Shown: positions 5,334 to 29,409 of the stretch, one piece after another
Layout of the letters: each line of letters begins with the position of its first letter
Numbering within the stretch: the stretch's first letter is position 1
DNA from: a virus
Lineage: Duplodnaviria > Caudoviricetes
Virus record (IMG/VR): IMGVR_UViG_3300043756_000110
Location: 1-57,013 of that record
Strand: one strand, 5' to 3'
Length of the DNA: 57,013 bases
The notes under the pieces: model-generated
What the model was told of the DNA's origin: nothing
The model's database searches: none
Seen by the model: only the letters and a program-made list of their open reading frames with translations
Translations under genes and position numbers: made by a program

Positions 5334-7805
5334 ATGCCGCAAAAAGACGCTATCGATGAATTCATCGCATTGCCGAACGACGAGCAGATGCGGCGGCTCG
5401 GAGCGCTGACCCGCGATAAGCAGGATCTTTTACTTCAGAAAGTTAAAGAGCGTCGATCCAAACAGCCATCCGCTATAGGACAGACCACTGCACCCGTGGC
5501 AACTTCGACTACGAAAGTCCCTGTCGCAACACCAACCGCACAGCCAAAAGGGAGACCGTTCCCGACTGTGCAATATCCAAGTACGGCGGCGACAAAACAA
5601 AAGCAAGATCAACTGGCAGACCGCCGCGCAATTGCGCATGCGCAATACTTATCGAACCTCCCCAGCTTCAGCCGACCCGAAAATTACCCCGCATGGCAAG
5701 CCCCCCTCGATCTTGCGATCGGTGCTGAGCAGATGTTGGGTATCGATCCCATGCGTCCCATCGCGACAACGCCAGGAGCCATTAAAAACCTGTGGCAGAA
5801 CCTCATGCAGTTTGGAAATATTCAAACCGATCCAGGGGGAACCAAATCGATACCTGCGATGTGGGAGGCGATTAAGAGAACTGCCACAGCGGCGAATCGA
5901 GCACGTCAAGAACAGAATCTTCCAGAGATGTATCAATCCCTTGGGCAATTCGGTGTAGCGGCGCAACCTGTGGCGGGTGCTGTTGAAGCGGGTCTCGGTG
6001 TTGTTCGAGCAGGTGCTGGTTCTCTTGCCGATGTCGCGGGTTTGCGTGAGCGAGCACGTAATGTTCTGCGACAGTCGCTCAAATCAACACCTGAAGAGAT
6101 TGAAAAACCTAAGCTTGAAGAAGCCTCGGCAAAGATCGCGGAAACGCAGCAGAAGCAAGCGGAGGCAAATCTGGCTGCGGCGGAGAAGACACAAGCATCA
6201 AAGGAGAAAGTGGCTCAGGAGGTGGAAGAACGTCGCACTGCAGCTCATAACGCAGCTCGAGGAGAAGCTCTTGATCGTAGTGTTCAAGAAGGTAGCACGC
6301 GTCTGGGTGAACGTGTATCCGACTTGGATGGGAAACTTCGCCAAGAAGGAAACGAGAAATATACCGCCGTCCGTAATGCCGTAAAAAACGATCCGGGAGT
6401 ACCACTGGCCGGCTTGGCACAGGCCGCGAAGCATGCTGAAGACAACATCCTGAAGGGTTCGCCCGAAAATATTAAGCAGTTCCGTGATCTTGCGCGCAAA
6501 GCGCCAGAAGAAGCGGGAGTGCAAACGAGTATAGGTGAACTGCAACCTGGCGATCCGCTATACGAACGTCTCAAATCGGAGGGCGCGCTAGATCTCGGCG
6601 GCAACATTACGTTCGATCAACTTCAAGGATATTCGTCGGAGATCGGCGAAAGATTGGCGCGGGGCGGTTTACAGGGTGATGTCTATCAGGCGTTGAAATA
6701 CCTGAAAGACGAAATCGATAAGGCCAAGACAACGATTGCGGAGCGTAATAACGCCGGCGGTCTCCTTCGCAATGCGGACTCCTTCTGGCGGTCGTACATG
6801 GATCTCTTCTACGACTCCGATAGCGCACTCGCCAAAGTTCGAGAAGGTGTCGGTACTAAAAACCCCTCCGAAGCCTTTAATGAATTTATGCGTGGAAGAG
6901 GGGATGAAATTGCGATTGGACGCTTAAAGCGACTTCGCACTCGACATGCCGATGATGCCAGTGCAATTGCGGATCTGAGTCAGAATCTCAAATCAGCCAC
7001 GAGAGAAGCGGATACATTAAAAGGAACCAGGGTTCCAGGGCGTCCAGAACCACCGACCCGCGCCGTTCCTAAACAGATCCCCCAGGAGCAATTGCCGACC
7101 GTCGAGAGTTTCGCTAAGGTGCGACGGGAAAAACTTCTGAACACATTTCGTAACTGGCGCGCGACCTCCATCTTCGAACTCCATCGTTTGGGTTACGCGG
7201 TGAACGCGGCCACTATCGGTTTTGTGGCAGGGCATAGTTTCGCCACTGCTGGCCTCGGAGCCGTCATTGCGTTTGCAACTCCTAAGATTGTCGCCGCTAT
7301 CATGAGTAATCCCGAGATACTGGACTTTCTGACCGCTCCGACCGAAGACATCATGGACGCAGCGGAGAATCTGCCACCGGACCAAAAATTAAATTTTCAG
7401 AACAACGTTCGTGATGCTATTAACCAGAGTCAGGCTGCTGGCCGACCGGTGAACGTATCACCGAGAATGTCCCGTTTCCTGGGGCTCACTGCCGTTGGTG
7501 CAGTGACAGCACCCGTACAGAATCGGAAGGACGCGATGGAACGCCTCGGCCGTAATCCCACTAATCCGACTCAACCGTCAGCTTCTGCTCGGATCACACC
7601 ACCTGCTGCCAGACCCGCTACAGCTGCAGCTTCGATGACGCTGGACGACTTTAATGCTCGACTCGATCGGCTGCTGCCTCCAGGTGATGCACGGTTTACT
7701 GATGCGAACCGGAGATTCAGCGTCATGGCTGGGGACGCGCCGGCCAGCCAGTTGGGCGACATCTTAGCCAGAGCGCAGGCGGAGGCGGTCAGAATAGGCC
7801 GATGA
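5334..7805 (+). CDS. Putative large ejection/DNA-transfer protein
   Basis: 823 aa, coiled-coil rich, with a late hydrophobic segment (IGFVAGHSFATAGLGAVIAF); last gene of the late operon. Confidence 0.45.
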   Translation: MPQKDAIDEFIALPNDEQMRRLGALTRDKQDLLLQKVKERRSKQPSAIGQTTAPVATSTTKVPVATPTAQPKGRPFPTVQYPSTAATKQKQDQLADRRAIAHAQYLSNLPSFSRPENYPAWQAPLDLAIGAEQMLGIDPMRPIATTPGAIKNLWQNLMQFGNIQTDPGGTKSIPAMWEAIKRTATAANRARQEQNLPEMYQSLGQFGVAAQPVAGAVEAGLGVVRAGAGSLADVAGLRERARNVLRQSLKSTPEEIEKPKLEEASAKIAETQQKQAEANLAAAEKTQASKEKVAQEVEERRTAAHNAARGEALDRSVQEGSTRLGERVSDLDGKLRQEGNEKYTAVRNAVKNDPGVPLAGLAQAAKHAEDNILKGSPENIKQFRDLARKAPEEAGVQTSIGELQPGDPLYERLKSEGALDLGGNITFDQLQGYSSEIGERLARGGLQGDVYQALKYLKDEIDKAKTTIAERNNAGGLLRNADSFWRSYMDLFYDSDSALAKVREGVGTKNPSEAFNEFMRGRGDEIAIGRLKRLRTRHADDASAIADLSQNLKSATREADTLKGTRVPGRPEPPTRAVPKQIPQEQLPTVESFAKVRREKLLNTFRNWRATSIFELHRLGYAVNAATIGFVAGHSFATAGLGAVIAFATPKIVAAIMSNPEILDFLTAPTEDIMDAAENLPPDQKLNFQNNVRDAINQSQAAGRPVNVSPRMSRFLGLTAVGAVTAPVQNRKDAMERLGRNPTNPTQPSASARITPPAARPATAAASMTLDDFNARLDRLLPPGDARFTDANRRFSVMAGDAPASQLGDILARAQAEAVRIGR

Positions 7806-7817
7806 CTTTTAATAGCC

Positions 7818-7856
7818 GGATGATTATGAAAATAAGGATCAAGCTGATAATCATCC
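7818..7856. terminator. Inverted repeat at the end of the late operon, possibly a bidirectional terminator
   Basis: GGATGATTAT(7818-27) / ATAATCATCC(7847-56), located between convergent transcription units; no strong U-tract. Confidence 0.3.
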
Positions 7857-7930
7857 AAGAGGCTGGAAATGGAACGGGTTCATCATTCATCACGGTTCAT
7901 GATTGTTTGTAACACACTAATGATTCAAAC

Positions 7931-8030
7931 GGCCATAAGCCCCACGCCTTGCCCAGCCGGGCCCCACCGTACCCTGCCTAGCCTTGCCGCGCTAGGCCTT
8001 ACCTTGCCTAGACCAGCCAAGTCTCGCCGT
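7931..8030 (-). ncRNA. Orphan GGY-NN pentamer-repeat guide-like RNA unit H
   Basis: 18 dinucleotides in strict 5-nt register (plus: ac tt ca gg cc gt ct ta tt gc ag tt tt ta ca aa tc gt), ending in the hairpin GGG-GCU-UAU-GGC-C (one G.U pair). Confidence 0.75.
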
Positions 8031-8037
8031 ACAGTTG

Positions 8038-8067
8038 TTGTTAACACAGATTCATTTGTATTACAAT
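8038..8067. promoter_or_regulatory. Overlapping divergent sigma70-like promoters
   Basis: Minus strand: TTGTAA(8066-61)-17 bp-TGnTAACAA(8043-38), aimed at unit H. Plus strand: TACAAT(8062-67), 7 nt before ATG 8075 (possible leaderless mRNA). Confidence 0.4.
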
Positions 8068-8074
8068 TGGATTA

Positions 8075-8302
8075 ATGACATTTGATGAATTACAACTACT
8101 GACAGAGAAGAACACGAAGGCGATTGCTGAATTAATTGTAGTTTCACGAACTGTACTAGATCACGCCAAAATTGTGAGCGCAGATCTGGAGAAGTCCACA
8201 AAAGAGATGAACGATCGGATGAATGCGCTCATCCACATCGTCGATGACTTGGTCCGTGACCGCTGGCGCCGGAAGAATGAGAACGGCGAAAAGAACCAAT
8301 GA
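8075..8302 (+). CDS. Small coiled-coil protein
   Basis: Heptad pattern; ATGA overlap with the next gene. Confidence 0.55.
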   Translation: MTFDELQLLTEKNTKAIAELIVVSRTVLDHAKIVSADLEKSTKEMNDRMNALIHIVDDLVRDRWRRKNENGEKNQ

Positions 8303-8502
8303 ACCGGCAAGTGCGACTGAATCGGCGTGTGGAGAAGATTCGCCGGGAAGCGTGCGAACGGTTCACTAAAGATGCGGTTATCCAGTGCCGAGTTGAAGTG
8401 CGACAAATGGATCAACTCAAAGAATTAGCTCAAACCCAAGGACTCTCCGTCAGCGCACTGACACGCATGTGGCTTCTCGAACGCCTTCGCGAAGAAAAAT
8501 GA
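8299..8502 (+). CDS. Ribbon-helix-helix (CopG-like) DNA-binding protein
   Basis: IQCRVE..QMDQLKELAQTQGLSVSALTRMWL fits the RHH pattern. Confidence 0.6.
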   Translation: MNRQVRLNRRVEKIRREACERFTKDAVIQCRVEVRQMDQLKELAQTQGLSVSALTRMWLLERLREEK

Positions 8503-9419
8503 TCTCGTCCGCCGAACTCCTTTCCAATTTCGAACACTGCCAGCGCTGGGGCTATTACTCCCAACACTGGCGCAAGCACCGCATGTCGTCCTTAGAAATG
8601 TTCAACACTGCGGTGCGGCAGGCGCTCATTGAAGATCGACCCGATCCTGGGGAGAACGCCGGCGAGATCATGATGACCATGGCGCGCGATCGCGGCCTCG
8701 AGCTCACCGACAGCATCAACACCTATCGCTGCGCTATCAACCATGCTGCCGCGGCGGATCTCGTCGTCACCGCGATCCGGGAGAAAAATCAAGAGGTCTG
8801 GCGGTCGCTACCGAATAAGGTGAACGGTTGGTGGGCCTCCGGGATGATGGATCCCAGTGGAAACTTTTTGAGGCGCTTCATCGCCGTATCCTCGTGGAAT
8901 GAAGATCGTGAATTCTACGAGAAGCATTCCTGGTACGTGCTCGGGGATGTCGCGCATTACATGATGCCGATGCAGTTAGTCGTTGCGGTGATGGGATCCA
9001 TGCAGAGCGGTCGGCGCCACGGCTACTGGTCGAAGGGCTTGTTACATCCGCACTGGAATCAAGTGCGGTTTAAGCTTCGCCGGCGCAGCCGAGTTGAGGG
9101 ATTCGTGGATTCATGGCAAACCTGCTTCCGGGAAGATCACGATGAGATCAGCCGGGAGAAGTGGTTGCAGGGGATGATTGAGGATGAGGTGCTGCAGCAA
9201 TCTTTATTCGTGATTAAAATTCCTGTGCCGGAGGAGACCGCCCTCGACAAGATTAGGAGCCTCGCCACACGACAGCTTGAACGTCTGCGCGCACTGAGCG
9301 ATCTTCCGGAAAAACAATTGACGACCTGCCACAATCCCCTTGCGCCATGTCCATTCAGGGCTTGCTGCTGGTCGGAACCGGAGTCGAAGCCGGAGGATAG
9401 CGGCTACGACCCCGTATGA
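8499..9419 (+). CDS. Cas4/RecB-like PD-(D/E)XK-fold protein with an Fe-S-type Cys signature
   Basis: N-terminal SS..LL..FEHCQR and C-terminal TCHNPLAPCPFRACC. Start reassigned to ATG 8499 (ATGA overlap). Catalytic (D/E)xK is not obvious. Confidence 0.55.
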   Translation: MISSAELLSNFEHCQRWGYYSQHWRKHRMSSLEMFNTAVRQALIEDRPDPGENAGEIMMTMARDRGLELTDSINTYRCAINHAAAADLVVTAIREKNQEVWRSLPNKVNGWWASGMMDPSGNFLRRFIAVSSWNEDREFYEKHSWYVLGDVAHYMMPMQLVVAVMGSMQSGRRHGYWSKGLLHPHWNQVRFKLRRRSRVEGFVDSWQTCFREDHDEISREKWLQGMIEDEVLQQSLFVIKIPVPEETALDKIRSLATRQLERLRALSDLPEKQLTTCHNPLAPCPFRACCWSEPESKPEDSGYDPV

Positions 9420-9422
9420 AGA

Positions 9423-9824
9423 TTACGCTCTCTTCTTCATGAACCCTGGCATGATGCCGGCGTCCATGCGCTCTTGGGCGACACGCTTCGCCTGCTTCTT
9501 GCGGTTCGTCTTCCCGACCTGATCGTGTTGTCTGGCGATAATCTCAGCAACCTTGGGCGGTATGACCAGTCGGATCGTACCGCTGGAAGATGAATGCATC
9601 AGAAAGATCGTGTCACCGACCTCCCGTTGCCGGAACGTTTGCACTGTGAACATTTCCACGCCACCGATACCAAACTGTGGAATGTGCTGGTGCGGCGTCG
9701 GTCGGGTCTGAATGACATCGGGTAATCCATCCAGACTTCCCATCAGGCGGGAATAGTTGTCCACGGTTGGCACGTGATCACGCACGTGCGTAATTACATC
9801 ATTGTCTTCATCATGTGATCTCAT
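9423..9824 (-). CDS. Hypothetical protein
   Basis: RBS AAAGGAG upstream of ATG 9824 (MRSHDED...). Confidence 0.6.
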   Translation of the reverse strand: MRSHDEDNDVITHVRDHVPTVDNYSRLMGSLDGLPDVIQTRPTPHQHIPQFGIGGVEMFTVQTFRQREVGDTIFLMHSSSSGTIRLVIPPKVAEIIARQHDQVGKTNRKKQAKRVAQERMDAGIMPGFMKKRA

Positions 9825-9861
9825 TCTGTCTCCTTTAATGAAAGCTAAAGTCTCAACCTTC

Positions 9862-9888
9862 ACTATATAGTATACCACACAATGTCAA
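9862..9888 (-). promoter_or_regulatory. Sigma70-like promoter
   Basis: Minus strand TTGACAttgtgTGgTATACTatatagtg: perfect -35 box and extended -10-like boxes, but spacing is non-canonical. Confidence 0.35.
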
Positions 9889-9901
9889 CAGCCCGTTAGG
9901 T

Positions 9902-10312
9902 TTATCCAACCGGCTCATCGCTCAAGAATTCATCCGGATCCGCCGAGTTGCCCGACGGCTCTACTCGCACCGGCGGCGTCGATGTCGTAAGCCGTCCCGC
10001 TGACGGCATATATTTCTGCAGCCAATCCTCCTGGCTCGTCGGAGTGGGTATCGGAACCGGCGCGACCCGCGCCTCGTCACTGCTTGGCCCAACTTCTCGA
10101 TCCCTCGATGAAGCCGCTGGCGGTTCCGATAGCGCGGACACGAGATTCTCGAGATACGGAATCCGTACAGAGAGGTACTCCAGTTTCCGGAGCGTTTCCG
10201 TGCGTTGTGCCACTCTCCGCTCCAGCTCGGCCTCGGCTTTACTCAAAGCGGATTCGTAGATGGTGCGGCGTGGTTCGCGCCGGCGCCGCGGCCGCGTCTT
10301 CTTCCTTATCAT
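9902..10312 (-). CDS. Hypothetical protein (basic N-terminus, coiled coil)
   Basis: ATGA overlap with the upstream gene; part of the leftward operon. Confidence 0.5.
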   Translation of the reverse strand: MIRKKTRPRRRREPRRTIYESALSKAEAELERRVAQRTETLRKLEYLSVRIPYLENLVSALSEPPAASSRDREVGPSSDEARVAPVPIPTPTSQEDWLQKYMPSAGRLTTSTPPVRVEPSGNSADPDEFLSDEPVG

Positions 10313-10656
10313 CTGACATGCTCCTTTTTCTTCTGATCCTTCACACGCGCCGCCTGCGTTTTGAATTTAAATAATGCCAGCTGCATTGCGGTGTCCTCTT
10401 TGTGCTCCTCTGCATACTCGAGTTTCTGCTTCTCTTCTTCCGACAGATCGGTCCAGACATAAGGCCAGCGGTTTTCCGGATGCGCCACTTCCCATACTTC
10501 GACGAGATCGGTTTCCACCTGATGCTGACATTTGAAACAGACGCCGGCGTGACGATAATCGATCAACTGACAGAGCCGACATGTGAGAAGCTTTGGCGGA
10601 AACCATGCGCGCTTCTCGCGATCCAATTCCCTGGCGAAGGCTTCTCTCAGCGTCAT
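10309..10656 (-). CDS. Zinc-finger-like hypothetical protein
   Basis: CRLC...CFKC; starts just after the unit G hairpin. Confidence 0.55.
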   Translation of the reverse strand: MTLREAFARELDREKRAWFPPKLLTCRLCQLIDYRHAGVCFKCQHQVETDLVEVWEVAHPENRWPYVWTDLSEEEKQKLEYAEEHKEDTAMQLALFKFKTQAARVKDQKKKEHVR

Positions 10657-10668
10657 TCATTTCAATCT

Positions 10669-10753
10669 GTGCATAGCACCCATGCCTAGCCCTGCCTTAC
10701 CTTGCCTCGCCGAGCCCAGCCATACCGGGCCCTGCCCCGGCCTCACCTGGGCC
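10669..10753 (-). ncRNA. GGY-NN guide-like RNA unit G
   Basis: About 14 units (plus: at ta ct tt tt tc ga ca at gg ct ccg tc tgg; two 3-nt irregularities at the 5' end), then hairpin GGG-UGC-UAU-GCA-C. Confidence 0.75.
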
Positions 10754-11000
10754 TGTCTGACTTATTCCGTGTTGTCTCCGAACAAACTGGACTGCAATCG
10801 TGTTGATGTCTTGGATTCAAGCCTCGTGGCTGCCGTGCTTCGATTGGTAGAAGACAAATCCCGCAGCGGCCGGTTCTCATGTACTCTCCAGGCTGGTATT
10901 GCGGTTCGGATATCGGCGTCGGCGTGGGGAACGAATCCCAGTCGATCTGCAAGTCCGGAAGCAACGGGTCTTGCGGTTTGTTGGGTTTTTGCTTTGCCAT
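10743..11000 (-). CDS. Small Cys-containing hypothetical protein
   Basis: CGIC...CSPVC. An alternative frame (10762-11010) also exists. Confidence 0.4.
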   Translation of the reverse strand: MAKQKPNKPQDPLLPDLQIDWDSFPTPTPISEPQYQPGEYMRTGRCGICLLPIEARQPRGLNPRHQHDCSPVCSETTRNKSDRPR

Positions 11001-11010
11001 TCCACACCAT

Positions 11011-11322
11011 TCAAGGACACCTCATGAAAACGCGCATGCGTGAACCGTTCTGGCCCAGGCGTGAGGCGTGCGTGCATTCAATCCGATGAATTCTCGCTAA
11101 TGCGTGGGCTATGCGGCGTAGTCGCTTCTGTATCGCCGGATCTTCAGCATCAAATTCCAACTCCTTACAAACATCCTCAACGGTGAACCACTTTCCTTTC
11201 GCATCGAAAAGGACGAAGAATATATCCAAGCTGTCGTTCAGCGCCTGGAACCGTCGGTAGCGGTAATTCTGGCGCGCTCCCCTTATATGAACGCGACCAC
11301 GGGTTGTCATTTCCTTCGTCAT
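11011..11322 (-). CDS. Putative winged-helix DNA-binding protein
   Basis: WFTVEDVCKEL...KRLRRIAHALARIHRIEC resembles a wHTH. Confidence 0.45.
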   Translation of the reverse strand: MTKEMTTRGRVHIRGARQNYRYRRFQALNDSLDIFFVLFDAKGKWFTVEDVCKELEFDAEDPAIQKRLRRIAHALARIHRIECTHASRLGQNGSRMRVFMRCP

Positions 11323-11342
11323 GACTCACTTTTTAAATTGCT

Positions 11343-11427
11343 GTGCATCGCACCCATGCCAAGCCAAGCCGTACCGTGCCATCCCCGGCCTCACCAGGCC
11401 TTGCCGAACCGCACCGTGCCCTGCCGC
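11343..11427 (-). ncRNA. GGY-NN guide-like RNA unit F
   Basis: 15 dinucleotides (plus: at aa aa gt gt at cg tc ag tt ga gc gt ct gc), then hairpin GGG-UGC-GAU-GCA-C. Confidence 0.8.
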
Positions 11428-11438
11428 CTTGATTTTCC

Positions 11439-11538
11439 GGTCATAGACCCCATGCCAAGCCGTGCCGCACCGCACCGTGCCTTGCCGCACCAGGCCTAGC
11501 CCAGCCAGACCGCGCCAAGCCTCACCGCGCTGGGCCGA
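11439..11538 (-). ncRNA. GGY-NN guide-like RNA unit E
   Basis: 18 dinucleotides (plus: at aa gt gc gc gt tt gc ag ta ca ag gc aa tc gc gg ga), then hairpin GGG-GUC-UAU-GAC-C. Confidence 0.8.
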
Positions 11539-11546
11539 ATTTCTTT

Positions 11547-11621
11547 GTGCATTGCACCCACGCCCCGCCGTGCCCAACCAAGCCAAACCAAACCACGCCT
11601 CACCAAGCCTCGCCCCGCCTC
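11547..11621 (-). ncRNA. GGY-NN guide-like RNA unit D
   Basis: 13 dinucleotides (plus: ac cc gt ca aa aa aa ac tc aa tc cc tc), then hairpin GGG-UGC-AAU-GCA-C. Confidence 0.8.
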
Positions 11622-11623
11622 AC

Positions 11624-12136
11624 TTATTTCTTGTCCTTCGCCATGACCTTCGGCGTCATTTCGGGTGGTCCTGGAGCTAATGACCGGAATTGACGCGACT
11701 CGATCATTGCTGAATAGACGTGTTTTGCGGCCAAAATACGATGATCTTTGATCTTGCGTTCTTGTTCGGTCAGATCGGAGTCGGCGATATTTGCGACGGC
11801 GCGATGCGAATGGCGAACCTTCCGACCTGCATGCTGATCGAGATCTCCGGAATACTCCAATTGCTCAGATGCCGACAACACGCGAATTCCAACACCAATG
11901 TCTCCCCTAAGATCGCCCCGTATTTCGATTCCGGTTTCGCGGGCGACTTTTTTACGCCACCGCACAACCACGGTTTTATAACGACTCGTGTCGCGCTTTA
12001 ATCCGGTGACACGCTCGAGCTCTTCATGTTTGATTGTCGAACCGCGCAGACTTTGAATGTCCGTGAAATGTTCAGTCAATTTCCGGATTTCAAAATCTGT
12101 TGGCAAACCTTTCGTAAAAATATTCGCTTCGGTCAT
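11624..12136 (-). CDS. Hypothetical protein embedded in the repeat locus (candidate accessory protein)
   Basis: Likely true start is MTEANIF at 12136. The longer N-terminus in the ORF track is translated repeat. The ATG lies inside the unit C hairpin. Confidence 0.7.
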   Translation of the reverse strand: MTEANIFTKGLPTDFEIRKLTEHFTDIQSLRGSTIKHEELERVTGLKRDTSRYKTVVVRWRKKVARETGIEIRGDLRGDIGVGIRVLSASEQLEYSGDLDQHAGRKVRHSHRAVANIADSDLTEQERKIKDHRILAAKHVYSAMIESRQFRSLAPGPPEMTPKVMAKDKK

Positions 12137-12275
12137 AGACCCCCTGCCTTGCCTCACCTTGCCCTGCCTTGCCTGACCGCGCCGCGCCGTGCCAGACCCA
12201 ACCACGCCCTGCCGTGCCGCGCCCAACCGCGCCATGGCCGGCCTTGCCTCACCACGCCGAGCCCCGCCCCGCCAT
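12131..12275 (-). ncRNA. GGY-NN guide-like RNA unit C
   Basis: 27 dinucleotides in register, then hairpin GGG-GUC-UAU-GAC-C. Confidence 0.8.
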
Positions 12276-12284
12276 TTCGTTTCT

Positions 12285-12419
12285 GGTCATCGACCCCATG
12301 CCCTGCCCCGCCTTACCGCGCCGTGCCGCGCCGAACCACGCCAGACTCTGCCATGCCCCGCCTCGCCCTGCCGCGCCCTGCCATGCCAAACCGAGCGGAG
12401 CCATGCTCTGCCGCGCCCG
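12285..12419 (-). ncRNA. GGY-NN guide-like RNA unit B
   Basis: 25 dinucleotides in register, then hairpin GGG-GUC-GAU-GAC-C. Confidence 0.8.
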
Positions 12420-12438
12420 AAATCCATAATTTCGATGT

Positions 12439-12508
12439 GTGCATTGCACCCTCGCCACGCCTTGCCGAACCGAACCGCGCCGGACCCTGCCGTGCCGAGG
12501 CCGGCCAC
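12439..12508 (-). ncRNA. GGY-NN guide-like RNA unit A
   Basis: 12 dinucleotides (plus: tc ac tt ga ga gc gg ct gt ga cg ac), then hairpin GGG-UGC-AAU-GCA-C. Begins 4 nt after the stop of the RAMP-like gene. Confidence 0.8.
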
Positions 12509-12512
12509 GAAC

Positions 12513-13184
12513 TTAAAGCTCAGTGAGCGCCGCCAGCTTAAACATCCCATATGGTCCGGGCTTTTGCGAACCGGGACGCCAATCGCAAAGACCTCTGTAA
12601 TTTCCAGCGTGTTCCAGGATGTTTCTAATGACCGATTCCGTAATGCCATCATCCCAAACTGTAATCGTAAACTCTAGACTCCATGAATCAAATCGCGGCC
12701 GTACTCGGATATGTTTCGTTTTTCCATTGATTTTGGCGCGCTTGGTGAATAGACGGAATCCTAATTTCTTTGTGGCTTCCAAATGATCCGTAAATTTGTT
12801 CTTTCCCATTAGCGTCTCAATCGGAGCCCATGGAATACTCTTTCCGTCCACAATTAGTGGAATAAACATATCGTCCACTTTCATTCCACTCTGCGTTTGT
12901 GCTTTAAATGTTTTTGCGCCTCGAGTGCTTCCCGTCGGCACGAGCATGCCGCCCTCCATCATGCAGGTCGATAAGTTATCGCTCGCTATACAGATCTGTT
13001 TACCATCGTGATAGACAGATCCGATCCATCTATACGCTGGACTCCGATCATCGCCAGCTTTAGAGTTGGCTTTGTTCTTGGGATCCTTTTTCCACTCCTC
13101 CATTTGATCCGCCCACTCAATGTTGTCCCAATGCATCAGAAGCGGTGTCAGTCCTTCCAATATCACGGCGTAAGTTCGAATCAT
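12513..13184 (-). CDS. Stand-alone Cas7/RAMP-like RNA-binding protein (Vipr-like effector)
   Basis: N-terminal strand with LEGLTPLLMH, HIRVRPRFDSWSLEFTI, and C-terminal glycine-rich loop AGNYRGLCDWRP..GPYGMF, matching the RAMP signature layout. No other cas effector genes. Confidence 0.75.
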   Translation of the reverse strand: MIRTYAVILEGLTPLLMHWDNIEWADQMEEWKKDPKNKANSKAGDDRSPAYRWIGSVYHDGKQICIASDNLSTCMMEGGMLVPTGSTRGAKTFKAQTQSGMKVDDMFIPLIVDGKSIPWAPIETLMGKNKFTDHLEATKKLGFRLFTKRAKINGKTKHIRVRPRFDSWSLEFTITVWDDGITESVIRNILEHAGNYRGLCDWRPGSQKPGPYGMFKLAALTEL

Positions 13185-13897
13185 GTTGAATGCTGGTCTC
13201 CTTTCAATTGAATCAACGATGCCTTTAACAGCTCCGTGAGCCGGCGCTCCTCGAAGTTGTCCGAACGTCTGCGGACGCTGTCGCCCCGGAAATAGCCGCG
13301 CTTCACGGCAAGATCCGCCAGAACCTCCAGACGATCGGAGAACGCGCTCACTTCCACTGAGAGCCTCTTGATGAATGTTTCATCGCGCTCAATGGCGTAC
13401 AGGGCATATGGCAAGTCCGGGTGATAGCTCAGAAGCCATGTGCGTTCGCGTTCTCCGATCCAGAGCTGACCTTGCGTCTGAATCCAGTACTCCTTCTTGG
13501 CCGCTTCAGGAGCCATGAGATTCATCATGTGCCGCGGGATCTGTGGACACTTCACTTCCAGAAAGCCGTCATCGACGGAGCGGTCTGGAGACGTTCCCCA
13601 ACGTTCGTCGTCGTCGGTGATGAAGCCCACCTCCTCGGTCTCCCGATCGGTCACCAGTGTGAAGTACTGAACGGCCTTATGTTCAAGCTCCGATCCCCGC
13701 TCCATCGCGAAGGATATGTATTCGTCGAGCGGATGGCCCAGGATGCGTTCAGCGAGTAGATCGAACAGAAAAGGATCGGCTTGGCTCGAGGGCTTACCGG
13801 TTAGCGTAATGACGCGATGGAATGCCGAACTGCAGGGGATGCCAGCACGCTTCTGGGACCATTCGAAAGAGCCCTGTTTACACCGGTGGATTTTCAT
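13181..13897 (-). CDS. YqaJ / lambda-exonuclease family recombination nuclease
   Basis: QGSFEWSQKRAG, MERGSELE, GTSPD, LEVKCP, YWIQTQGQLW. Confidence 0.9.
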   Translation of the reverse strand: MKIHRCKQGSFEWSQKRAGIPCSSAFHRVITLTGKPSSQADPFLFDLLAERILGHPLDEYISFAMERGSELEHKAVQYFTLVTDRETEEVGFITDDDERWGTSPDRSVDDGFLEVKCPQIPRHMMNLMAPEAAKKEYWIQTQGQLWIGERERTWLLSYHPDLPYALYAIERDETFIKRLSVEVSAFSDRLEVLADLAVKRGYFRGDSVRRRSDNFEERRLTELLKASLIQLKGDQHST

Positions 13898-14597
13898 TCG
13901 CCTTTCTCCGTTTTTCCAATAGATCTATGGCGCGTCTTAGGTCGGCTTTTTTCAGATCCGCAACTTTCTCGATGCGAAAATATTCCAAGAACAGTTTCTT
14001 ATTCGCCCCTACGTCGGCGATGACCGTCTCGAGATCCTTGACCTGTTCGGCATCGATGGTCTCAACGTTCTCCGGCGATTCACCACGTTCGCGCTCCACA
14101 ATGTTGAAATGCAGCTTGTAGAGCTGGCGTCTGGCATAACTGATCGTCGAACCCTCCGACTGAACACCGGAACGAAAGTCGGATTTATCTAGGGGGAGAT
14201 TGACGCATTTTGTTTCCTCGTGACCTTGCAAATGCTTCAGGGTTCCACCGAATTCACGCATGCCATCCTTGATGCCCAGTTCCGTCATATCAAATGCGAA
14301 CCCGTGTTCATCCATTAAGGGCCGAAGCACGATATCCAGCTGCTCTAGAGTTGCGTAGCGGCTACGCACTTCGTTCTTCACGACGATGGAGCCGTCTTTG
14401 GTTACGGCAATCTTCGCTTGGGCATCGTGTAACGCCTTGAAATACGCTCGGCGCGCCTCGCGGTCTTCCTCTGCACGTTTCATGGCCAGCAGCTCTTTCA
14501 TGACCTCGACTTGATCCCGCGCATTCGGAGAACCCACGATCTGCTGGACGATTTCCATAATTGTCGGTTCATGCTTGATGAGATCGTTCTTACTCAT
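13878..14597 (-). CDS. ERF-family ssDNA-annealing protein
   Basis: RYATLEQL...PLMDEHGF and QSEGSTISYARR, the ERF GS.ITYARRY-like motif. Confidence 0.85.
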   Translation of the reverse strand: MSKNDLIKHEPTIMEIVQQIVGSPNARDQVEVMKELLAMKRAEEDREARRAYFKALHDAQAKIAVTKDGSIVVKNEVRSRYATLEQLDIVLRPLMDEHGFAFDMTELGIKDGMREFGGTLKHLQGHEETKCVNLPLDKSDFRSGVQSEGSTISYARRQLYKLHFNIVERERGESPENVETIDAEQVKDLETVIADVGANKKLFLEYFRIEKVADLKKADLRRAIDLLEKRRKANENPPV

Positions 14598-14890
14598 TGA
14601 TCCTCCGCTTTGCGCTTGCGCTCCCGTAATTTGTTCTTCACATGACGGTCATGCGCCCCTTGATAGCCGTGACAATCCCAAGGCGTATGGTTATGGAGAT
14701 AGCCCACGATGGCCGGCAAGGCTTCAAGGCTACGCTCATCCGCCCGCCCGATGGCACCATCCAGATTGTTGTCAATGCAGGCCTGCAGGAAATGTCCGGT
14801 GGGGATTCCAAAGCGGACATAGTTATCGATCGTTTCCTTGATGTCTTCGGGTAGAACCGTCTCTCTGAAAATGTAGGTGCCGTTGGTCAT
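14594..14890 (-). CDS. Phage hypothetical protein
   Basis: YVRFGIPTGHFLQACIDNNLDGAIGRAD...CHG. Start reassigned to ATG 14890 (ATGA overlap). Confidence 0.65.
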   Translation of the reverse strand: MTNGTYIFRETVLPEDIKETIDNYVRFGIPTGHFLQACIDNNLDGAIGRADERSLEALPAIVGYLHNHTPWDCHGYQGAHDRHVKNKLRERKRKAEDQ

Positions 14891-15102
14891 ACGAACTCCA
14901 GACTGCCGGGATCGGTCGCTTCTGGTGTCTCTCCGGTTCTCGGAATCGGCGGGCCTCCGTCGTACTGGCGGAAGTAGTAGCGGACAAAAATGAAGCGATC
15001 GTTCCAGCGCACGATCTTCCCCCATTCGGTTAAACCTTGGACGCTGTATCGCACCTCGCGATTAACGTCGCCGGAATTCAGCTTACGGATATCGATAGAC
15101 AT
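14887..15102 (-). CDS. Small beta-rich hypothetical protein
   Basis: VRY...EWGKIVRWNDRFIFVRY, SH3-like pattern; coupled to the next gene. Confidence 0.55.
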   Translation of the reverse strand: MSIDIRKLNSGDVNREVRYSVQGLTEWGKIVRWNDRFIFVRYYFRQYDGGPPIPRTGETPEATDPGSLEFV

Positions 15103-15161
15103 AAGCGTTTAACCTGCCAGAGTCGTTCGCTCGCCAATCATCGATGGGACTCCACGTGGCT

Positions 15162-15176
15162 GACCTACCAAGTCGC
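15162..15176 (+). repeat. 15-bp direct repeat, copy 1 (GACCTACCAAGTCGC)
   Basis: Identical copy at 16555-16569. Confidence 0.7.
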
Positions 15177-15182
15177 CCCGCT

Positions 15183-15458
15183 TCACCAGATTGTTCGAAA
15201 TCTCGCCGCTCTCAACTTATCGAGCGGAATCTGTAAACGTCTGGCAATTTTTGTGGCATTCAGTAAACTGACAACGGCATTGTCCGCCTCACACTTTCGA
15301 TACGTCATGGTGGCGATACCAATTTCTTTAGCGGCGGCCACCTGCGAGAGTCCCTGATCCAGGCGCCATTCGAGGATCTGATCGGGATCGAGTTGGACAC
15401 CTCGCACAAGAGGATTAGGCTTGGGGCCGCGCCGTCGTGCTCGTCTCTTATTCGCCAT
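15183..15458 (-). CDS. Cro-like XRE HTH regulator
   Basis: WRLDQGLSQVAAAKEIGIATMTYRKCE; start MANKRR with RBS GAGGG. Confidence 0.75.
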   Translation of the reverse strand: MANKRRARRRGPKPNPLVRGVQLDPDQILEWRLDQGLSQVAAAKEIGIATMTYRKCEADNAVVSLLNATKIARRLQIPLDKLRAARFRTIW

Positions 15459-15523
15459 ATTGCCCTCAAATAAATGGCGATTATTTAATGCCCAATCCCC
15501 TCCAAAGATCAATATTAATCGGC

Positions 15524-15610
15524 TGGTATAATCAATCCAACAATTTAGCCATCATGCCTCATCTAACTACAATCCATAAATATCTAACCATCAGCTAACT
15601 AGATCAGTTA
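15524..15610 (+). promoter_or_regulatory. Immunity switch region: extended -10 promoter and operator-like repeats
   Basis: TGgTATAAT at 15524-32; repeated CTAAC(T/C)A; inverted repeat TAACT-agatc-AGTTA at 15596-15610; AT-rich gap between divergent HTH genes. Confidence 0.5.
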
Positions 15611-15656
15611 CTCTTGTGGACTGCGAGGCAGGCTGCAGGGAGGCATCCCTGGAAGG

Positions 15657-16079
15657 ATGGTGTTTAAAAAAATGACGTATGGGCAGATCTTACGATATTT
15701 CAGGGAGAAGGCCGGCAATGAGTCCAAGACCGCGTTTGCCCGCCGACTAGGAATGATGGCGTCGAATCACTATATCGGTGCCGAGAATGACCGTGAGGAG
15801 AAGAAACCGTCACTCGATTTGCTGGAGCGGGCGGCGAAGCTCGCAGGGCTGGAATTCCAAGACTTCATCAACCCGCCTCACGAGAATCGATCCGAGAAGC
15901 AGTTCCGTGTTGAGAACAGAGAACTCCATCGACAACTTGAAGCTGTCCTGAACCGGGATGATGATGTCTCGGACTGGCTCGCTTCCAACATTAGTGTCTT
16001 CTATCACCGTTTCTTCGGTGGGGCTGAGGGCATCGAGATTGAAACACATCAAAGACGTCAGGCAAGGCGTCTAAAATAA
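15657..16079 (+). CDS. CI-like XRE HTH repressor (no S24 peptidase domain)
   Basis: YGQILRYFREKAGNESKTAFARRLGM...ENDREEKKPSLDLLERAA; divergent from the cro-like gene. Confidence 0.75.
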   Translation: MVFKKMTYGQILRYFREKAGNESKTAFARRLGMMASNHYIGAENDREEKKPSLDLLERAAKLAGLEFQDFINPPHENRSEKQFRVENRELHRQLEAVLNRDDDVSDWLASNISVFYHRFFGGAEGIEIETHQRRQARRLK

Positions 16080-16380
16080 TATCGGGTACCTCGATCTCAC
16101 CTAGAACATGTTCCGGCAGCCGTAAATGATTGGTGATCACGAATATCTTAATCCGCGGCCGGAAACGGCCGACGACCAGATTGTGCAGGCCGTGGCGCTT
16201 GCGTAGTCGAGATCGAAATTCATTGAAGACCTCCGGCAAGACATCGAAGATCTCCGGCAGAATGTTGCCCTCACCGGCAACGCACTGCTCAAGCCGATGG
16301 TGATTGGTGACGATGAACACTTTGTTCGTGGGAGTATGGTACGGGCCGCTAGCTACACTGTGACCGCTCAGAACTGACAT
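15991..16380 (-). CDS. Hypothetical protein with an internal tandem duplication
   Basis: RBS AGGGG; two ~40-aa repeats (KVFIVTNHHRL..LPEVFNEFRSR / KIFVITNHLRL..LPDVFDVFQSR). Confidence 0.55.
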   Translation of the reverse strand: MSVLSGHSVASGPYHTPTNKVFIVTNHHRLEQCVAGEGNILPEIFDVLPEVFNEFRSRLRKRHGLHNLVVGRFRPRIKIFVITNHLRLPEHVLGEIEVPDIILDALPDVFDVFQSRCPQPHRRNGDRRH

Positions 16381-16483
16381 ATTGTTCCCCTAGACGCTGC
16401 GATTCCCCGGAGTGTAGCGGACAGTGTATAGAGTTAGACTACTGAGGTATAGTCCGTATTTCTACGGAGTTTGGCCCTGTTGC

Positions 16484-16547
16484 TTTTACAAATCGACGAC
16501 ATTTTACAAATGCGTGATTGACCCGGCGAGGGCGTTCGTTATAGGAT
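16484..16547 (+). promoter_or_regulatory. Rightward promoter with upstream direct repeats
   Basis: TTTTACAAAT x2 (16484, 16502); TTGACC(16518-23)-18 bp-TAGGAT(16542-47). Confidence 0.45.
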
Positions 16548-16554
16548 CTCGCGC

Positions 16555-16569
16555 GACCTACCAAGTCGC
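16555..16569 (+). repeat. 15-bp direct repeat, copy 2
   Basis: Identical to 15162-15176. Confidence 0.7.
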
Positions 16570-16726
16570 TTCGCTCACCACGGAAGGAGAGCGAAATGTT
16601 CGTCAAGCTGCTGATTCTGACATTCGCTCCCTGCATCGTTCTAGCGGTGTGGGGAGTTTCGTCTTATCTTTCAACCCACCGCCGATTCCGACGCTTCCTT
16701 CGTCGTTCGATAAGGAGGGTGTCGTG

Positions 16727-17032
16727 ATGGGTAAAAAAATCATTCCTTTTAACCACGAAAACGAACCATTCAACGAGATTCAACTATGCAAGGAAATGCA
16801 GGAGTTCCTCAAACATCCAACGTTTGAGGACACCGAGCAGGAATATTTCGCACAGAGTACCGCGGCCCGATATTCGGGCATTTCGGCACGTAAATTAGTC
16901 GATCTCAGTAATAAAGGCCTGATCCCCTGCTATAACGTTTTGGACCGACGGACCTATAAACGCGAAGACCTCGACCGATTCATGCAATCGGTAAAGTGGA
17001 CGCCACATCGCATGAAAGGCCAGAAGGATTAG
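16727..17032 (+). CDS. Excisionase-like (MerR/HTH_17-type) DNA-binding protein
   Basis: AARYSGISARKLVDLSNKGLIPC...RRTYKREDLDRF; RBS TAAGGAGG; directly upstream of the integrase. Confidence 0.75.
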   Translation: MGKKIIPFNHENEPFNEIQLCKEMQEFLKHPTFEDTEQEYFAQSTAARYSGISARKLVDLSNKGLIPCYNVLDRRTYKREDLDRFMQSVKWTPHRMKGQKD

Positions 17033-17096
17033 GCGTAGAATGCCTCCTGCAAAACCGTGATTTATCCACAACAACAAGGAGACAAGGAGATCCATT

Positions 17097-18287
17097 GTGA
17101 AGAAACCCAAACGAACGAAAAACATTATTCACCTGAAAAACGGCAAGCTCGAAGCTTCATTTCACTGGCCAGACGGTAAGCGCTTCCGTAAGCGCATACC
17201 GGATGAGAAAACGGGCGACGACCTTATCGTCAAAGCCGACCACGAAATCAAATTTGGCGACTGGCGGGCGCTCCGAGAGAAGTGGAATGACAGGGGAAAG
17301 AAGGCTGTCGTCATTTCCGAGAAGGACATCTCCATCCCGCAATGCGTCCCGCTGTTTTTGCAGAATTGGTGTCGCAGTCGGCACGACAGCGACTTTTACG
17401 AAAGGGAACTAAAGAACGTCGAGCGGATTCTCCACGACAAGCGGCTGCAATCCTTTACCCGTCAGGATGGGAACTATTTTTACGACACGCGATTGCTGGA
17501 GGTCGCGACGACTGGGCCACGGAAGGGCCAGCAGATCACCACCGAGACGGCGAATCACGGACTCACGGCGTTGAGCGCGATGCTGCGCTGGGCGCATGAG
17601 GAAATGGGATGGATTCCGGCGCATCCAATGAAGGATTTCCAGTGGAAAGAACCGAAAAAGAAAGTGCGGTTCCCAGTGGACGGATTGCAGGTTCGTAATC
17701 TGGTCGAGGAGGCGATTGCAAGGGATGAGGTCGTCGGGAAATGTTTCGGCATTGTGTCCCAGACGGCATTGCGCATTGGCCAGGGAATCGAATTAAAGCG
17801 GCCTCTTTTCGATGTACGCCGGGGGCTGGTCATCGTCGAGCCGTTCAAAGCCAATAAGGACGGCTACAGCATCCCCATTTCTCCGGAGGCGATGGAATAC
17901 GCCAAGGGATTACCCCGCGCACCTGTTGGGTCGGGTCTTGAGCAGTATCTGTTTGTGCGGCAGGATGCGCGGGTCCATTCGGGGCGCAAGTGGGGAATGC
18001 TGGAGCGCACCTATGTCTGCAAGATCTTCGAAGAGGCACGGATCGCGGCGGGCATCGAGGCCAAGATCACGCCGCATGACTTGCGGCACTTTCGTGCAAT
18101 CGAATGGTTGGAAATCGGCTGGGACATCGACAAAGTACGCGAGTGGATGGGCCACACGAGCCTTCTGACCACGAAGCGGTATTTGAAATATTGCCAGGAC
18201 CGCGTCATGGCTGCAGCTGGTGAGATGTACCAACGCGAACAGCAACGGCTGGAGAGGCTGAAGTCGGCGGCAGAGAAGGAGGCGTGA
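17097..18287 (+). CDS. int: Tyrosine integrase
   Basis: Catalytic set TALR, K, HDLRH, MGH and TKRY; N-terminal arm-binding-like domain. Confidence 0.92.
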   Translation: MKKPKRTKNIIHLKNGKLEASFHWPDGKRFRKRIPDEKTGDDLIVKADHEIKFGDWRALREKWNDRGKKAVVISEKDISIPQCVPLFLQNWCRSRHDSDFYERELKNVERILHDKRLQSFTRQDGNYFYDTRLLEVATTGPRKGQQITTETANHGLTALSAMLRWAHEEMGWIPAHPMKDFQWKEPKKKVRFPVDGLQVRNLVEEAIARDEVVGKCFGIVSQTALRIGQGIELKRPLFDVRRGLVIVEPFKANKDGYSIPISPEAMEYAKGLPRAPVGSGLEQYLFVRQDARVHSGRKWGMLERTYVCKIFEEARIAAGIEAKITPHDLRHFRAIEWLEIGWDIDKVREWMGHTSLLTTKRYLKYCQDRVMAAAGEMYQREQQRLERLKSAAEKEA

Positions 18288-19137: not shown

Positions 19138-19467
19138 GATCATATTTTGTTAACGTATTGATTCTTAAGGCAGTTATGGCACAAACTCGTAGCTGTGGTC
19201 GCTATATAGACTCCAGAGTACGTTTTCCTGCATTCTCCTGCAAATTCCGGCACAAGTACCCTGAACAAAACCTGTTGCGGGGTTTTGTTCACCTCCGTTT
19301 TCCTGCACCGTCCGGCAGGCCATTCGGGAGAGATTCGGGAGATTTGGGTAACCAAAATGGAGAGAAATGGGAGAGATTTCCGCGACGTAGCTAAAGCAAT
19401 AACTGATATGGCAGCTAACCGGAAATTCAGAAGATTTTGAGACCCAAAATGGAGAGATTTAGGAGAG
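19114..19467. repeat. GGAGAGA repeat cluster with an IHF site (attP or origin candidate)
   Basis: GGAGAGATTCGGGAGA at 19114 and 19327; CCAAAATGGAGAGA at 19352 and 19444; AATCAAtacgTTA (IHF consensus WATCAANNNNTTR) on minus at 19151-63. Confidence 0.55.
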
Positions 19468-19476
19468 GTTTTTGAC

Positions 19477-21410: not shown

Positions 21411-21674
21411 GTGGGACACCCCGTGGGACAGCAAAATATGAACGACCCCAAATACCCGCAAATACCCGTGGGACAGTCCCCTTCAGTGGGACAGGAGCGT
21501 GAACTCGCCCCTGGTGAGCTTATCGATCTCATAAGAAAGAAGATGCTCCCGCAAAATGAAATAACCCAACGTGCTGTCCCACTGTCCCACCCCCCTAGAG
21601 CGTGGGACAGTGGGACAGTTGAGAAAACGGCACTGTCCCAAACTGAAAAATTCGGTGGGACAGTCGTGGGACAC
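21411..21674. repeat. Iteron-like TGGGACA cluster (candidate replication origin)
   Basis: 11 copies in both orientations, centred on the inverted repeat CTGTCCCACTGTCCCAC-11 nt-GTGGGACAGTGGGACAG (21574-21618). Confidence 0.7.
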
Positions 21675-21908
21675 TTGGTGATTTTCCCCCTTCCTCCGGG
21701 ACCGGATCGTGTGCTTCGGGCGCTCGGTGCGGAATGGTTGAATACACACCAGATTGCCGTCACGGCCAACCAGGATCCTGGAGACACTTTTCATTGGTTG
21801 GGCGAGTTTGAAGATCTCGGACTCGTCGAACGAACAAACCGCGGAGACGTCGCGCTGCTGACCCGCCGTGACGAGCGGTCACCGATCTGGAGCTGGAGGG
21901 CAAAATGA
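21411..21908 (+). CDS. Protein with a C-terminal winged-helix domain
   Basis: VLRALGAEWLNTHQIA...LGEFEDLGLVERT. Start is uncertain (21438 or later). Confidence 0.55.
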   Translation: MGHPVGQQNMNDPKYPQIPVGQSPSVGQERELAPGELIDLIRKKMLPQNEITQRAVPLSHPPRAWDSGTVEKTALSQTEKFGGTVVGHLVIFPLPPGPDRVLRALGAEWLNTHQIAVTANQDPGDTFHWLGEFEDLGLVERTNRGDVALLTRRDERSPIWSWRAK

Positions 21909-29193: not shown

Positions 29194-29409
29194 TTACAAC
29201 GCTTTCAAGTCACTCAGAATCGTCTGAATGTCGGCGAGCAGATGGCCGATTCCCGCCTGCAGTTTCGGTTGAAGCGTGACTTCATTCAAGTGTGTTTCGA
29301 TGAGGTAGACCTCGAGATCAAAACGGAAGTCCACGAGTGTTTCGATCAATTGCCGCGTTTCGTCGTTGGGAGGTTCGATCATGGCTCGAAGTGAATCACG
29401 TTGGATCAA
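29194..29409 (-). CDS. Small helical hypothetical protein
   Basis: Co-oriented with 28929-29147; amphipathic. Confidence 0.4.
   Translation of the reverse strand: MIQRDSLRAMIEPPNDETRQLIETLVDFRFDLEVYLIETHLNEVTLQPKLQAGIGHLLADIQTILSDLKAL

Follow-up and report, generated by a model that had tools for sequence, protein, structure and literature searches.

A probable VIPR system with eight guide RNA arrays in the genome of a temperate soil phage

The viral record IMGVR_UViG_3300043756_000110 (Duplodnaviria; Caudoviricetes) was analyzed over its whole stretch of 57,013 nt, referred to below as the window. Its minus strand carries a gene for a Cas7-like RAMP protein, eight arrays of a 5-nt repeat and a small accessory gene, and this locus is very probably a VIPR (Viral Interference Programmable Repeat) system. 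Such systems were published in 2026 as bioRxiv preprints (10.64898/2026.04.26.720920, 10.64898/2026.04.26.720927, 10.64898/2026.10.15.759431). The Vipr protein is presented there as an early-branching RAMP that co-purifies with its guide RNA (vrRNA), and the tracts of Escherichia phage SUSP1 were experimentally shown to be RNAs (10.64898/2026.04.26.720920). The published vrRNAs consist of 9–16 GGY/NN repeats (Y, C or T; N, any base) and a 3′ tail, which forms a pseudoknot in the SUSP1 clade; the target is double-stranded DNA (dsDNA), read with one skipped base per NN, and repression is programmable (10.64898/2026.04.26.720920). The complex is a helical filament with one protomer per repeat (10.64898/2026.04.26.720927). 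Seven VIPR types and the accessory genes vap1–6 have been distinguished (10.64898/2026.04.26.720920).

Vipr protein, repeat arrays and accessory gene

The vipr gene (12513..13184, minus strand) encodes a Cas7-like RAMP protein of 223 aa, and its start overlaps the stop codon of the upstream gene for a YqaJ-type exonuclease. A phmmer search of the PDB sequences matched its product to chain 36pp_D, the “SUSP1 Vipr protein” (E 2.1e-7), and BLASTP analysis against SUSP1 Vipr gave an E value of 2e-13 with 24% identity over 219 columns. A first-pass annotation, made from the letters of the sequence, had pointed to a match with VIPR systems, and this proved correct at the level of sequence homology. 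In a tblastn comparison with phage genomes, 119 records were found, all with an identity below 60%; they included phiSUSP1 (23.7% identity, 96% of the query, E 3e-6) and Pseudomonas phage LESphi2 (27.4% identity, E 5e-11). The phrog_4652 family matches the Vipr of the window (E 2.1e-20), SUSP1 Vipr (E 1.4e-96) and the LESphi2 protein (E 8.5e-66). Among 2099 candidates from a large protein database, at least 2024 were Vipr homologs at E <= 0.001, mostly of soil or environmental origin. No Pfam family matches Vipr, and the PADLOC search gave no Cas-family match to it at the sequence level.

The structure of Vipr was modeled from an alignment of 72 homologs with high confidence (pLDDT 89.4, pTM 0.85). 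According to the Foldseek analysis, the model is most similar to Csm3/Cas7 chains of type III-A and type VII effectors (E 2.8e-5, probability 1.00, TM about 0.5). The RAMP/Cas7 fold that the first-pass annotation had read from the layout of sequence motifs was thereby recovered by structure prediction and fold search, and all the motifs it quoted are present in the translation. In SUSP1 Vipr, the two G's of the GGY triplet are held by H17, D177, R138 and W178, and the pyrimidine by R179 (10.64898/2026.04.26.720927). In the pairwise alignment, these residues correspond to H18, D201, R162, W202 and R203 of the protein from the window, all five of which are invariant across the 72 homologs. The helix-1 residues E71/M72 of SUSP1 align with D69/N70 and are not identical. 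All family-invariant residues are present in the Vipr of the window, and both the vipr and the accessory open reading frames (ORFs) are intact.

A phase-aware parse of the window identified eight in-phase arrays of GG[C/T]NN pentamers on the minus strand and none on the plus strand. Positions 1–3 of the pentamer are GGC or GGT, and positions 4–5 are freely variable. The triplet is a strict GGY in 122 of the 132 pentamers (C in 92, T in 30) and degenerate in the other 10. Arrays of at least six strict units appeared neither in 100 dinucleotide-preserving shuffles of the window nor in 200 shuffles of the region. Since the NN positions differ, Tandem Repeats Finder detects the arrays only as fragments with periods of 5, 10, 15, 20 and 25. 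The strict 5-nt period and the minus-strand location had been recognized earlier, as had the absence of an NN string common to two units, and all three hold: the NN strings differ across all eight units, with a top pairwise overlap identity of 0.64. The numbers given at that time have to be corrected. Seven units had been counted instead of eight, the unit H at 8028-7931 having been missed; the number of pentamers per unit is 11–26 and not 12–27; and the first strict pentamer of unit A begins 6 nt, rather than 4 nt, past the vipr stop codon.

Three of the units lie between vipr and the accessory gene. The first of them, vrRNA A (12439..12506; array 12506-12452), contains 11 pentamers, 10 of them strict, and ends in the tail GUGC-AAU-GCAC. 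It is followed by vrRNA B (12285..12417; array 12417-12298) with 24 pentamers (21 strict) and the tail GGUC-GAU-GACC, and by vrRNA C (12131..12273; array 12273-12144) with 26 pentamers (25 strict), whose tail GGUC-UAU-GACC holds the start codon of the accessory gene. Beyond this gene are located vrRNA D (11547..11619; array 11619-11560; 12 pentamers, all 12 strict; tail GUGC-AAU-GCAC), vrRNA E (11439..11536; array 11536-11452; 17 pentamers, 16 strict; tail GGUC-UAU-GACC) and vrRNA F (11343..11425; array 11425-11356; 14 pentamers, 13 strict; tail GUGC-GAU-GCAC). Two small unrelated ORFs part F from vrRNA G (10669..10747; array 10736-10682), which has 11 strict pentamers, the tail GUGC-UAU-GCAC and two extra pentamers upstream, from position 10747, after a phase slip of 1 nt. 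The solo vrRNA H (7931..8028; array 8028-7944) comprises 17 pentamers (14 strict) with the tail GGCU-UAU-GGCC; it occupies the gap between the plus-strand genes 5334-7805 and 8075-8302, and the nearest other unit is 2.6 kb away. All eight vrRNAs are encoded by the minus strand and dispersed over ~4.6 kb among genes, and none lies upstream of vipr.

All eight tracts run into G's and then into a 4-bp hairpin with a constant N-A-U loop, behind which an A-rich linker begins. The linkers between the units measure 10–21 nt. The tail motif GGKKCNATGMMC has seven matches, one behind each of the units A–G, against 0.71 expected, and the tail of vrRNA H is the variant GGGCTTATGGCC. In the gap-free alignment of the eight tails, the helix is paired in 32 of 32 cells, which agrees with the hairpin and A-rich linker previously noted at the unit ends. 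Two of the four stem pairs show changes on both sides (G-C, U-A, C-G). The covariation score of the tails is 0.688 versus 0.219 for shuffled tails, of which 0 of 500 reach 0.688, and it does not exceed 0.134 when the partner is slid. The repeat tracts of the four units compared with shuffled sequence fold no better than it does (z from +0.46 to -1.55), and such unstructured tracts fit single-stranded RNA held by a protein. In the region 7500-13300, no Rfam family, including the hammerhead ribozyme, was found at threshold. A terminator scan gave no result above chance.

Because the 10–21-nt linkers are too short for separate promoters, the units A–G are probably cut out of the early-left transcript. 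The location of H between two plus-strand genes means that this unit needs a promoter of its own; a promoter-like scan of positions 7500-16500 gave no convincing candidate for it.

The accessory gene is similar to vap1 and is located at 11624..12136 on the minus strand. It encodes 170 aa from the ATG at 12136, which is most likely the true start, and the listed ORF of 203 aa (11624-12235) would be a spurious extension into array C. The protein matches phrog_5926 (E 8.5e-5), a family that also matches the next gene after vipr in both studied phages, namely SUSP1 vap1 (E 1.1e-75) and the LESphi2 neighbour (E 4.1e-31). An hhalign comparison of a 35-sequence family alignment, built from related loci, with SUSP1 vap1 yielded a probability of 95.1% (E 3.2e-8). 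A word-index protein search with vap1 returned two proteins, vap1 itself and one that is 78% identical. The tblastn analysis placed a vap homolog next to vipr or its arrays, and on the same strand as vipr, in 58 of 90 related loci. For the remaining small ORFs of the region (103, 85, 115, 136 and 151 aa), it gave no homolog in any of the 90. The vipr gene, earlier regarded as stand-alone, is thus accompanied by a conserved accessory gene.

In the model of Vap1 (pLDDT 90.4), an alpha/beta domain at the N terminus is followed by a long helical hairpin at the C terminus. Foldseek found no PDB match to it at E <= 0.001; the weak rows include winged-helix regulators of the MarR, PadR and GntR groups, with a best E value of 0.047 and a probability of 0.90 for 1ku9_A. 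Vap1 is probably a DNA-binding protein, as follows from the statement on vap1 in the discovery paper (10.64898/2026.04.26.720920) and not from the fold search described here.

The start of vap1 is unusually placed. Its ATG falls in the loop and 3′ stem of the vrRNA C hairpin (12131-12142), and the only Shine-Dalgarno-like bases before it belong to the last repeat of C and the G's that follow. Among 27 relatives with an array just upstream of vap, the estimated vap start lies 19–51 nt past the end of the tract, and most of the flanks listed for these relatives have a GGAG-type ribosome-binding motif after the hairpin and before the vap start. The arrangement in the window suggests a possible trade-off between the maturation of vrRNA C and the translation of vap1.

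Related loci and guide targets

The locus was compared with a set of 92 vipr loci comprising 10 bacterial genome contigs, 80 viral contigs, SUSP1 and LESphi2. At least one GGY-NN array of at least six units was found in 89 of them, always on the vipr strand and never on the opposite one. Whether homologs in other phages carry such arrays had been proposed as a check of the initial interpretation, and this result answers it in the affirmative. The three array-less loci are two contigs of ~2 kb and the locus L048. In the latter, the region 6627-7250 contains degenerate tracts with no run of four strict GGY units and four intact hairpin tails with NAT loops; it represents either a decayed array or a relaxed repeat consensus.

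A 4-bp Watson-Crick hairpin is present within 5 nt of the array end in 206 of 344 arrays, compared with 26 of 344 shuffled tails, and 31 different stems occur. The order vipr, arrays, vap (about 500 bp), arrays is recurrent and can be seen, for example, in seven loci of the set; one of these (L041) has an array of 39 strict units. In addition, 13 viral loci have vipr genes that are 96–100% identical. The vipr-proximal guide is the same in 13 of 13, and there are at least six versions of the middle guide and three of the distal one, so the guides are exchanged as whole cassettes. In four further loci (L062, L078, L082 and L090), the arrays follow one another at 7–8 nt, too close for a hairpin to fit between them; the “staggered arrays” named in the discovery paper (10.64898/2026.04.26.720920) may be of this kind.

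Targets of the guides were sought under the 1-nt skip rule, a match being accepted when at least 80% of NN agreed. The own 57-kb contig contains no match at this level (maximum 0.75), and the phage therefore does not target itself. Exact 1-nt-skip patterns, covering D and G as a whole and parts of E, C, A, F and H, had no matches in viral contigs. In 860 kb of related loci, the top score was 0.80 (guide A, 16/20), equal within 0.05 to the 0.75 of the controls with 0- and 2-nt skips. A part of E with 15 units was not found, at up to three mismatches, in any of 201 sampled genomes of the order of genome G067, which is a weak test. The single metagenome match to a 10-unit seed of E was rejected as a chance hit: its flanks agree at 3 of 14 informative positions (23 of 34 overall).

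Genome context and probable host

On the minus strand, the early genes are arranged in the following order: a gene for a helix-turn-helix (HTH) regulator (15183-15512), an ORF of 143 aa, Erf, the YqaJ-type exonuclease, vipr, the units A–C and vap1. After vap1, the units D–F, two small ORFs, unit G and three more ORFs follow. The contig also carries genes for an integrase, terminase, portal and capsid, in addition to Erf and the YqaJ exonuclease. The lysogeny module (15183-18287) includes the minus-strand HTH regulator, a divergent plus-strand ORF of 140 aa (15657-16079) without a PHROG match, and the integrase, which is a tyrosine-integrase homolog (17097-18287; phrog_1, E 1.4e-30).

The ends of the contig (1-159 and 56855-57013) form a direct repeat of 159 nt with 98% identity, and the contig is probably a complete phage genome of ~56.85 kb, with either circular closure or terminal redundancy. 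The only sequencing run found to contain the stretch is one of soil-metagenome DNA, possibly its origin, and no RNA run with it was listed. Short direct repeats, namely GGGAGAG-containing 11-mers and repeat pairs of 50 nt and 22 nt, are clustered at positions 19221-19471 just upstream of a primase/helicase-like gene (19752-21407) and may represent replication-origin iterons. In or beside the ORF 21411-21908, adjoining opposite-sense 8-nt tandem repeats at 21574-21619, two copies of CTGTCCCA and two copies of GTGGGACA, form an inverted repeat. Two very large ORFs, 29366-34651 (1761 aa) and 34593-36956 (787 aa), lie upstream of the terminase gene and have no PHROG match at E <= 0.001.

The terminase shares 27.8% identity with its counterparts in Tunturiibacter phages. 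It is 42% identical (E 6.8e-167) to that of a prophage-like locus detected in 1 of 301 sampled genomes of the phylum of the related locus L005 (Vicinamibacterales metagenome-assembled genome). These similarities give a hint of an acidobacterial host.

None of the 49 ORFs of the window matched a PADLOC family at E <= 1e-5, and the same search revealed no Cas1, Cas2, Cas5, Cas6, Cas8 or Cas10 in the 57-kb genome. No family of CRISPR-like interspaced repeats was detected in the window; the other direct repeats are the terminal repeat and chance-like matches of 2–3 copies. The earlier proposal that neither a CRISPR array nor other cas genes accompany the system is in full agreement with these searches.

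Interpretation and comparison with described systems

All the defining features of VIPR that can be tested here are present: the homology of Vipr, the GGY-contact residues, the arrays beside vipr, for which at least four tandem GGY-NN (YNNGG) pentamers are required, the structured tail, a vap gene and the lack of CRISPR/cas components. The locus is interpreted as the VIPR system of a temperate soil phage, consisting of vipr, a vap1-like gene and eight vrRNAs, with a probability of about 0.93. This interpretation is based on what was computed here, namely homology, fold, conserved RNA-contact residues, array anatomy, tail covariation and the vipr-array-vap linkage in relatives. The expression and processing of the RNAs, the formation of a filament, the silencing of DNA and the nature of the targets would be expected to follow the published systems.

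By analogy with these systems, the vrRNAs would be released from one or more early transcripts of the minus strand, and each GGY-NN repeat would be bound by one Vipr protomer that holds both G's as well as the pyrimidine and displays the NN pair. The first-pass annotation had likewise assigned one subunit to each GGY with NN displayed, which is the same as the published mechanism (10.64898/2026.04.26.720920, 10.64898/2026.04.26.720927). The filament would be capped by the 3′ hairpin, would bind dsDNA reading NN-x-NN-x (the 1-nt skip rule) and would block transcription there, and Vap1, as a probable DNA-binding protein, may enhance the effect. The general idea of a programmable guide had thus been anticipated; vap1, unit H and dsDNA targets with a 1-nt skip, the last being expected here from the published rule, had escaped notice. 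The eight guides are most likely aimed at competing mobile elements of the same host, such as other phages, satellites or rival VIPR loci.

Several observations weigh against this interpretation. The identity to the studied Vipr proteins is just 24–27%. Where the SUSP1-clade vrRNA is capped by a pseudoknot, the vrRNAs of the window end in a simple NAU-loop hairpin of 4 bp. Units B and C, with 24 and 26 repeats, are beyond the 9–16 of SUSP1, and details of assembly or footprint may differ. The promoter-like scan of 7500-16500 found 6 sites against a shuffle mean of 6.1 and does not delimit the transcription units. As regards the biological role, no natural target was found for any guide in the scans made. 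The NN composition only weakly favours the wobble-skipping codon registers, which score +2.9 and -0.8 log-likelihood units over background, versus -3.3 to -17 for the other four registers.

In a different use of the same machinery, the guides would be directed at the host chromosome or at the regulation of the phage itself, as decoys or regulators, and not at competing mobile elements. The lack of matches in viral contigs speaks for such a role, as does the report that satellite vrRNAs redirect VIPR to host repetitive elements (10.64898/2026.10.15.759431). It is nevertheless unlikely, given that the phage's own 57 kb contain no guide match at the accepted level, that guide E was not found in the 201 genomes sampled (a weak test, as said), and that most of the assigned targets are satellites and prophages, 18 of 20 for SUSP1 and 48 of 66 for Pseudomonas fulva (10.64898/2026.04.26.720920).

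Irregularities of the locus could also be taken as signs of a decayed or silent VIPR remnant, whose repeats persist in a phage where the system no longer works: 10 of the 132 pentamers are degenerate, G contains a phase slip of 1 nt, and the vap1 start codon is buried in a hairpin. However, the two protein genes are intact with every family-invariant residue kept, 122 pentamers are strict, 8 of 8 tails pair perfectly, and internal degeneracy of repeats is frequent in working vrRNAs (10.64898/2026.04.26.720920), which makes decay very improbable. The view that the tracts encode Gly/Ala/Arg-rich repeat proteins or represent microsatellite-like DNA without an RNA role can draw on long ORFs running through the arrays (11624-12235, 12287-12652, 11326-11586), but stop codons are rare in GGY-NN tracts in any frame, so that open frames arise by construction. 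A period of 5 nt is not a multiple of 3, and a unit with three constant and two variable positions is a misfit to codon constraint. The strand-specific tie to vipr in 89 of 92 loci, the covarying hairpin behind each tract and the experimental demonstration of the SUSP1 tracts as RNAs (10.64898/2026.04.26.720920) point in the same direction, and this view hardly deserves credence.

Within the interpretation of the locus as a VIPR system, type II appears to fit best; this tentative assignment derives from the homology of vap1 and from the tandem arrays with their tails. It is conceivable, if rather doubtful, that the Vipr clade found here has a distinct VIPR sub-architecture and is not a plain type II copy. 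Four features would define it, namely the NAU-loop hairpin cap, the long guides, the scattered and exchanged cassettes, and the vap1 start within vrRNA C. In that case, a minimal NAU-loop hairpin would stand in for the pseudoknot cap, and guides of 24–26 repeats (39 in one relative) would span a target of 70–120 bp or be cut into several. Near-identical vipr genes would exchange guide cassettes, which would be dispersed over the early operon, with one solo unit in the opposite sense. In the phage analyzed here, the 3′ end of vrRNA C includes the ribosome-binding region and start codon of vap1, and translation of this gene would then be incompatible with guide maturation or with the binding of Vipr to this RNA.

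The VIPR family has already been described, and the general picture of what VIPR is remains unchanged. The locus adds a complete temperate soil phage of ~56.9 kb with eight different guides to a family so far studied mainly in E. coli and Pseudomonas phages. Its hairpin cap, very long guides, interleaving, solo guide and buried start codon offer handles on how vrRNAs are made and how the length of the filament is set.

The locus does not qualify as class 1 CRISPR-Cas, which requires a CRISPR array and partner Cas proteins; neither was found in the 57-kb genome. With Cas7/Csm3 of the type III-A and type VII systems, the Vipr of the window has the fold alone in common. The VIPR step is 5 nt, with three hidden and two read, whereas that of Cas7/Csm3 is 6 nt with one flipped, and the published VIPR targets, unlike those of Cas7/Csm3, are dsDNA read with gaps.

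The closest likeness is to VIPR type II, represented by Escherichia phage SUSP1 and the Pseudomonas fulva prophage. Both sides are phage-borne and have a Vipr homolog with identical GGY-contact residues, together with an accessory gene of the vap1 family (phrog_5926). Their vrRNAs, made of GGY-NN repeats and a structured 3′ tail, are encoded by the vipr strand in arrays adjoining the genes. Self-targets under the 1-nt skip rule are absent here, and the published systems are likewise described without them (10.64898/2026.04.26.720920). Apart from the low Vipr identity and the hairpin tail, the differences concern the length and layout of the guides. Here they contain 11–26 repeats, compared with 9–16 in SUSP1; three vrRNAs lie between vipr and vap1, with the rest spread over ~4.6 kb among unrelated small ORFs; the vap1 start codon is within a tail hairpin; and no vrRNA is situated upstream of vipr.

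Solo or orphan vrRNAs, and a contest with satellites in which satellite vrRNAs steer VIPR to host repetitive elements, are described for SUSP1-like phages and F5 satellites (10.64898/2026.10.15.759431). Unit H resembles these vrRNAs in being single and located away from the vipr-vap1 pair, and so, less clearly, does unit G. Unlike the carriers of solo vrRNAs described there, the phage analyzed here retains its own vipr and vap1, and its unit H is flanked by genes of the opposite strand.

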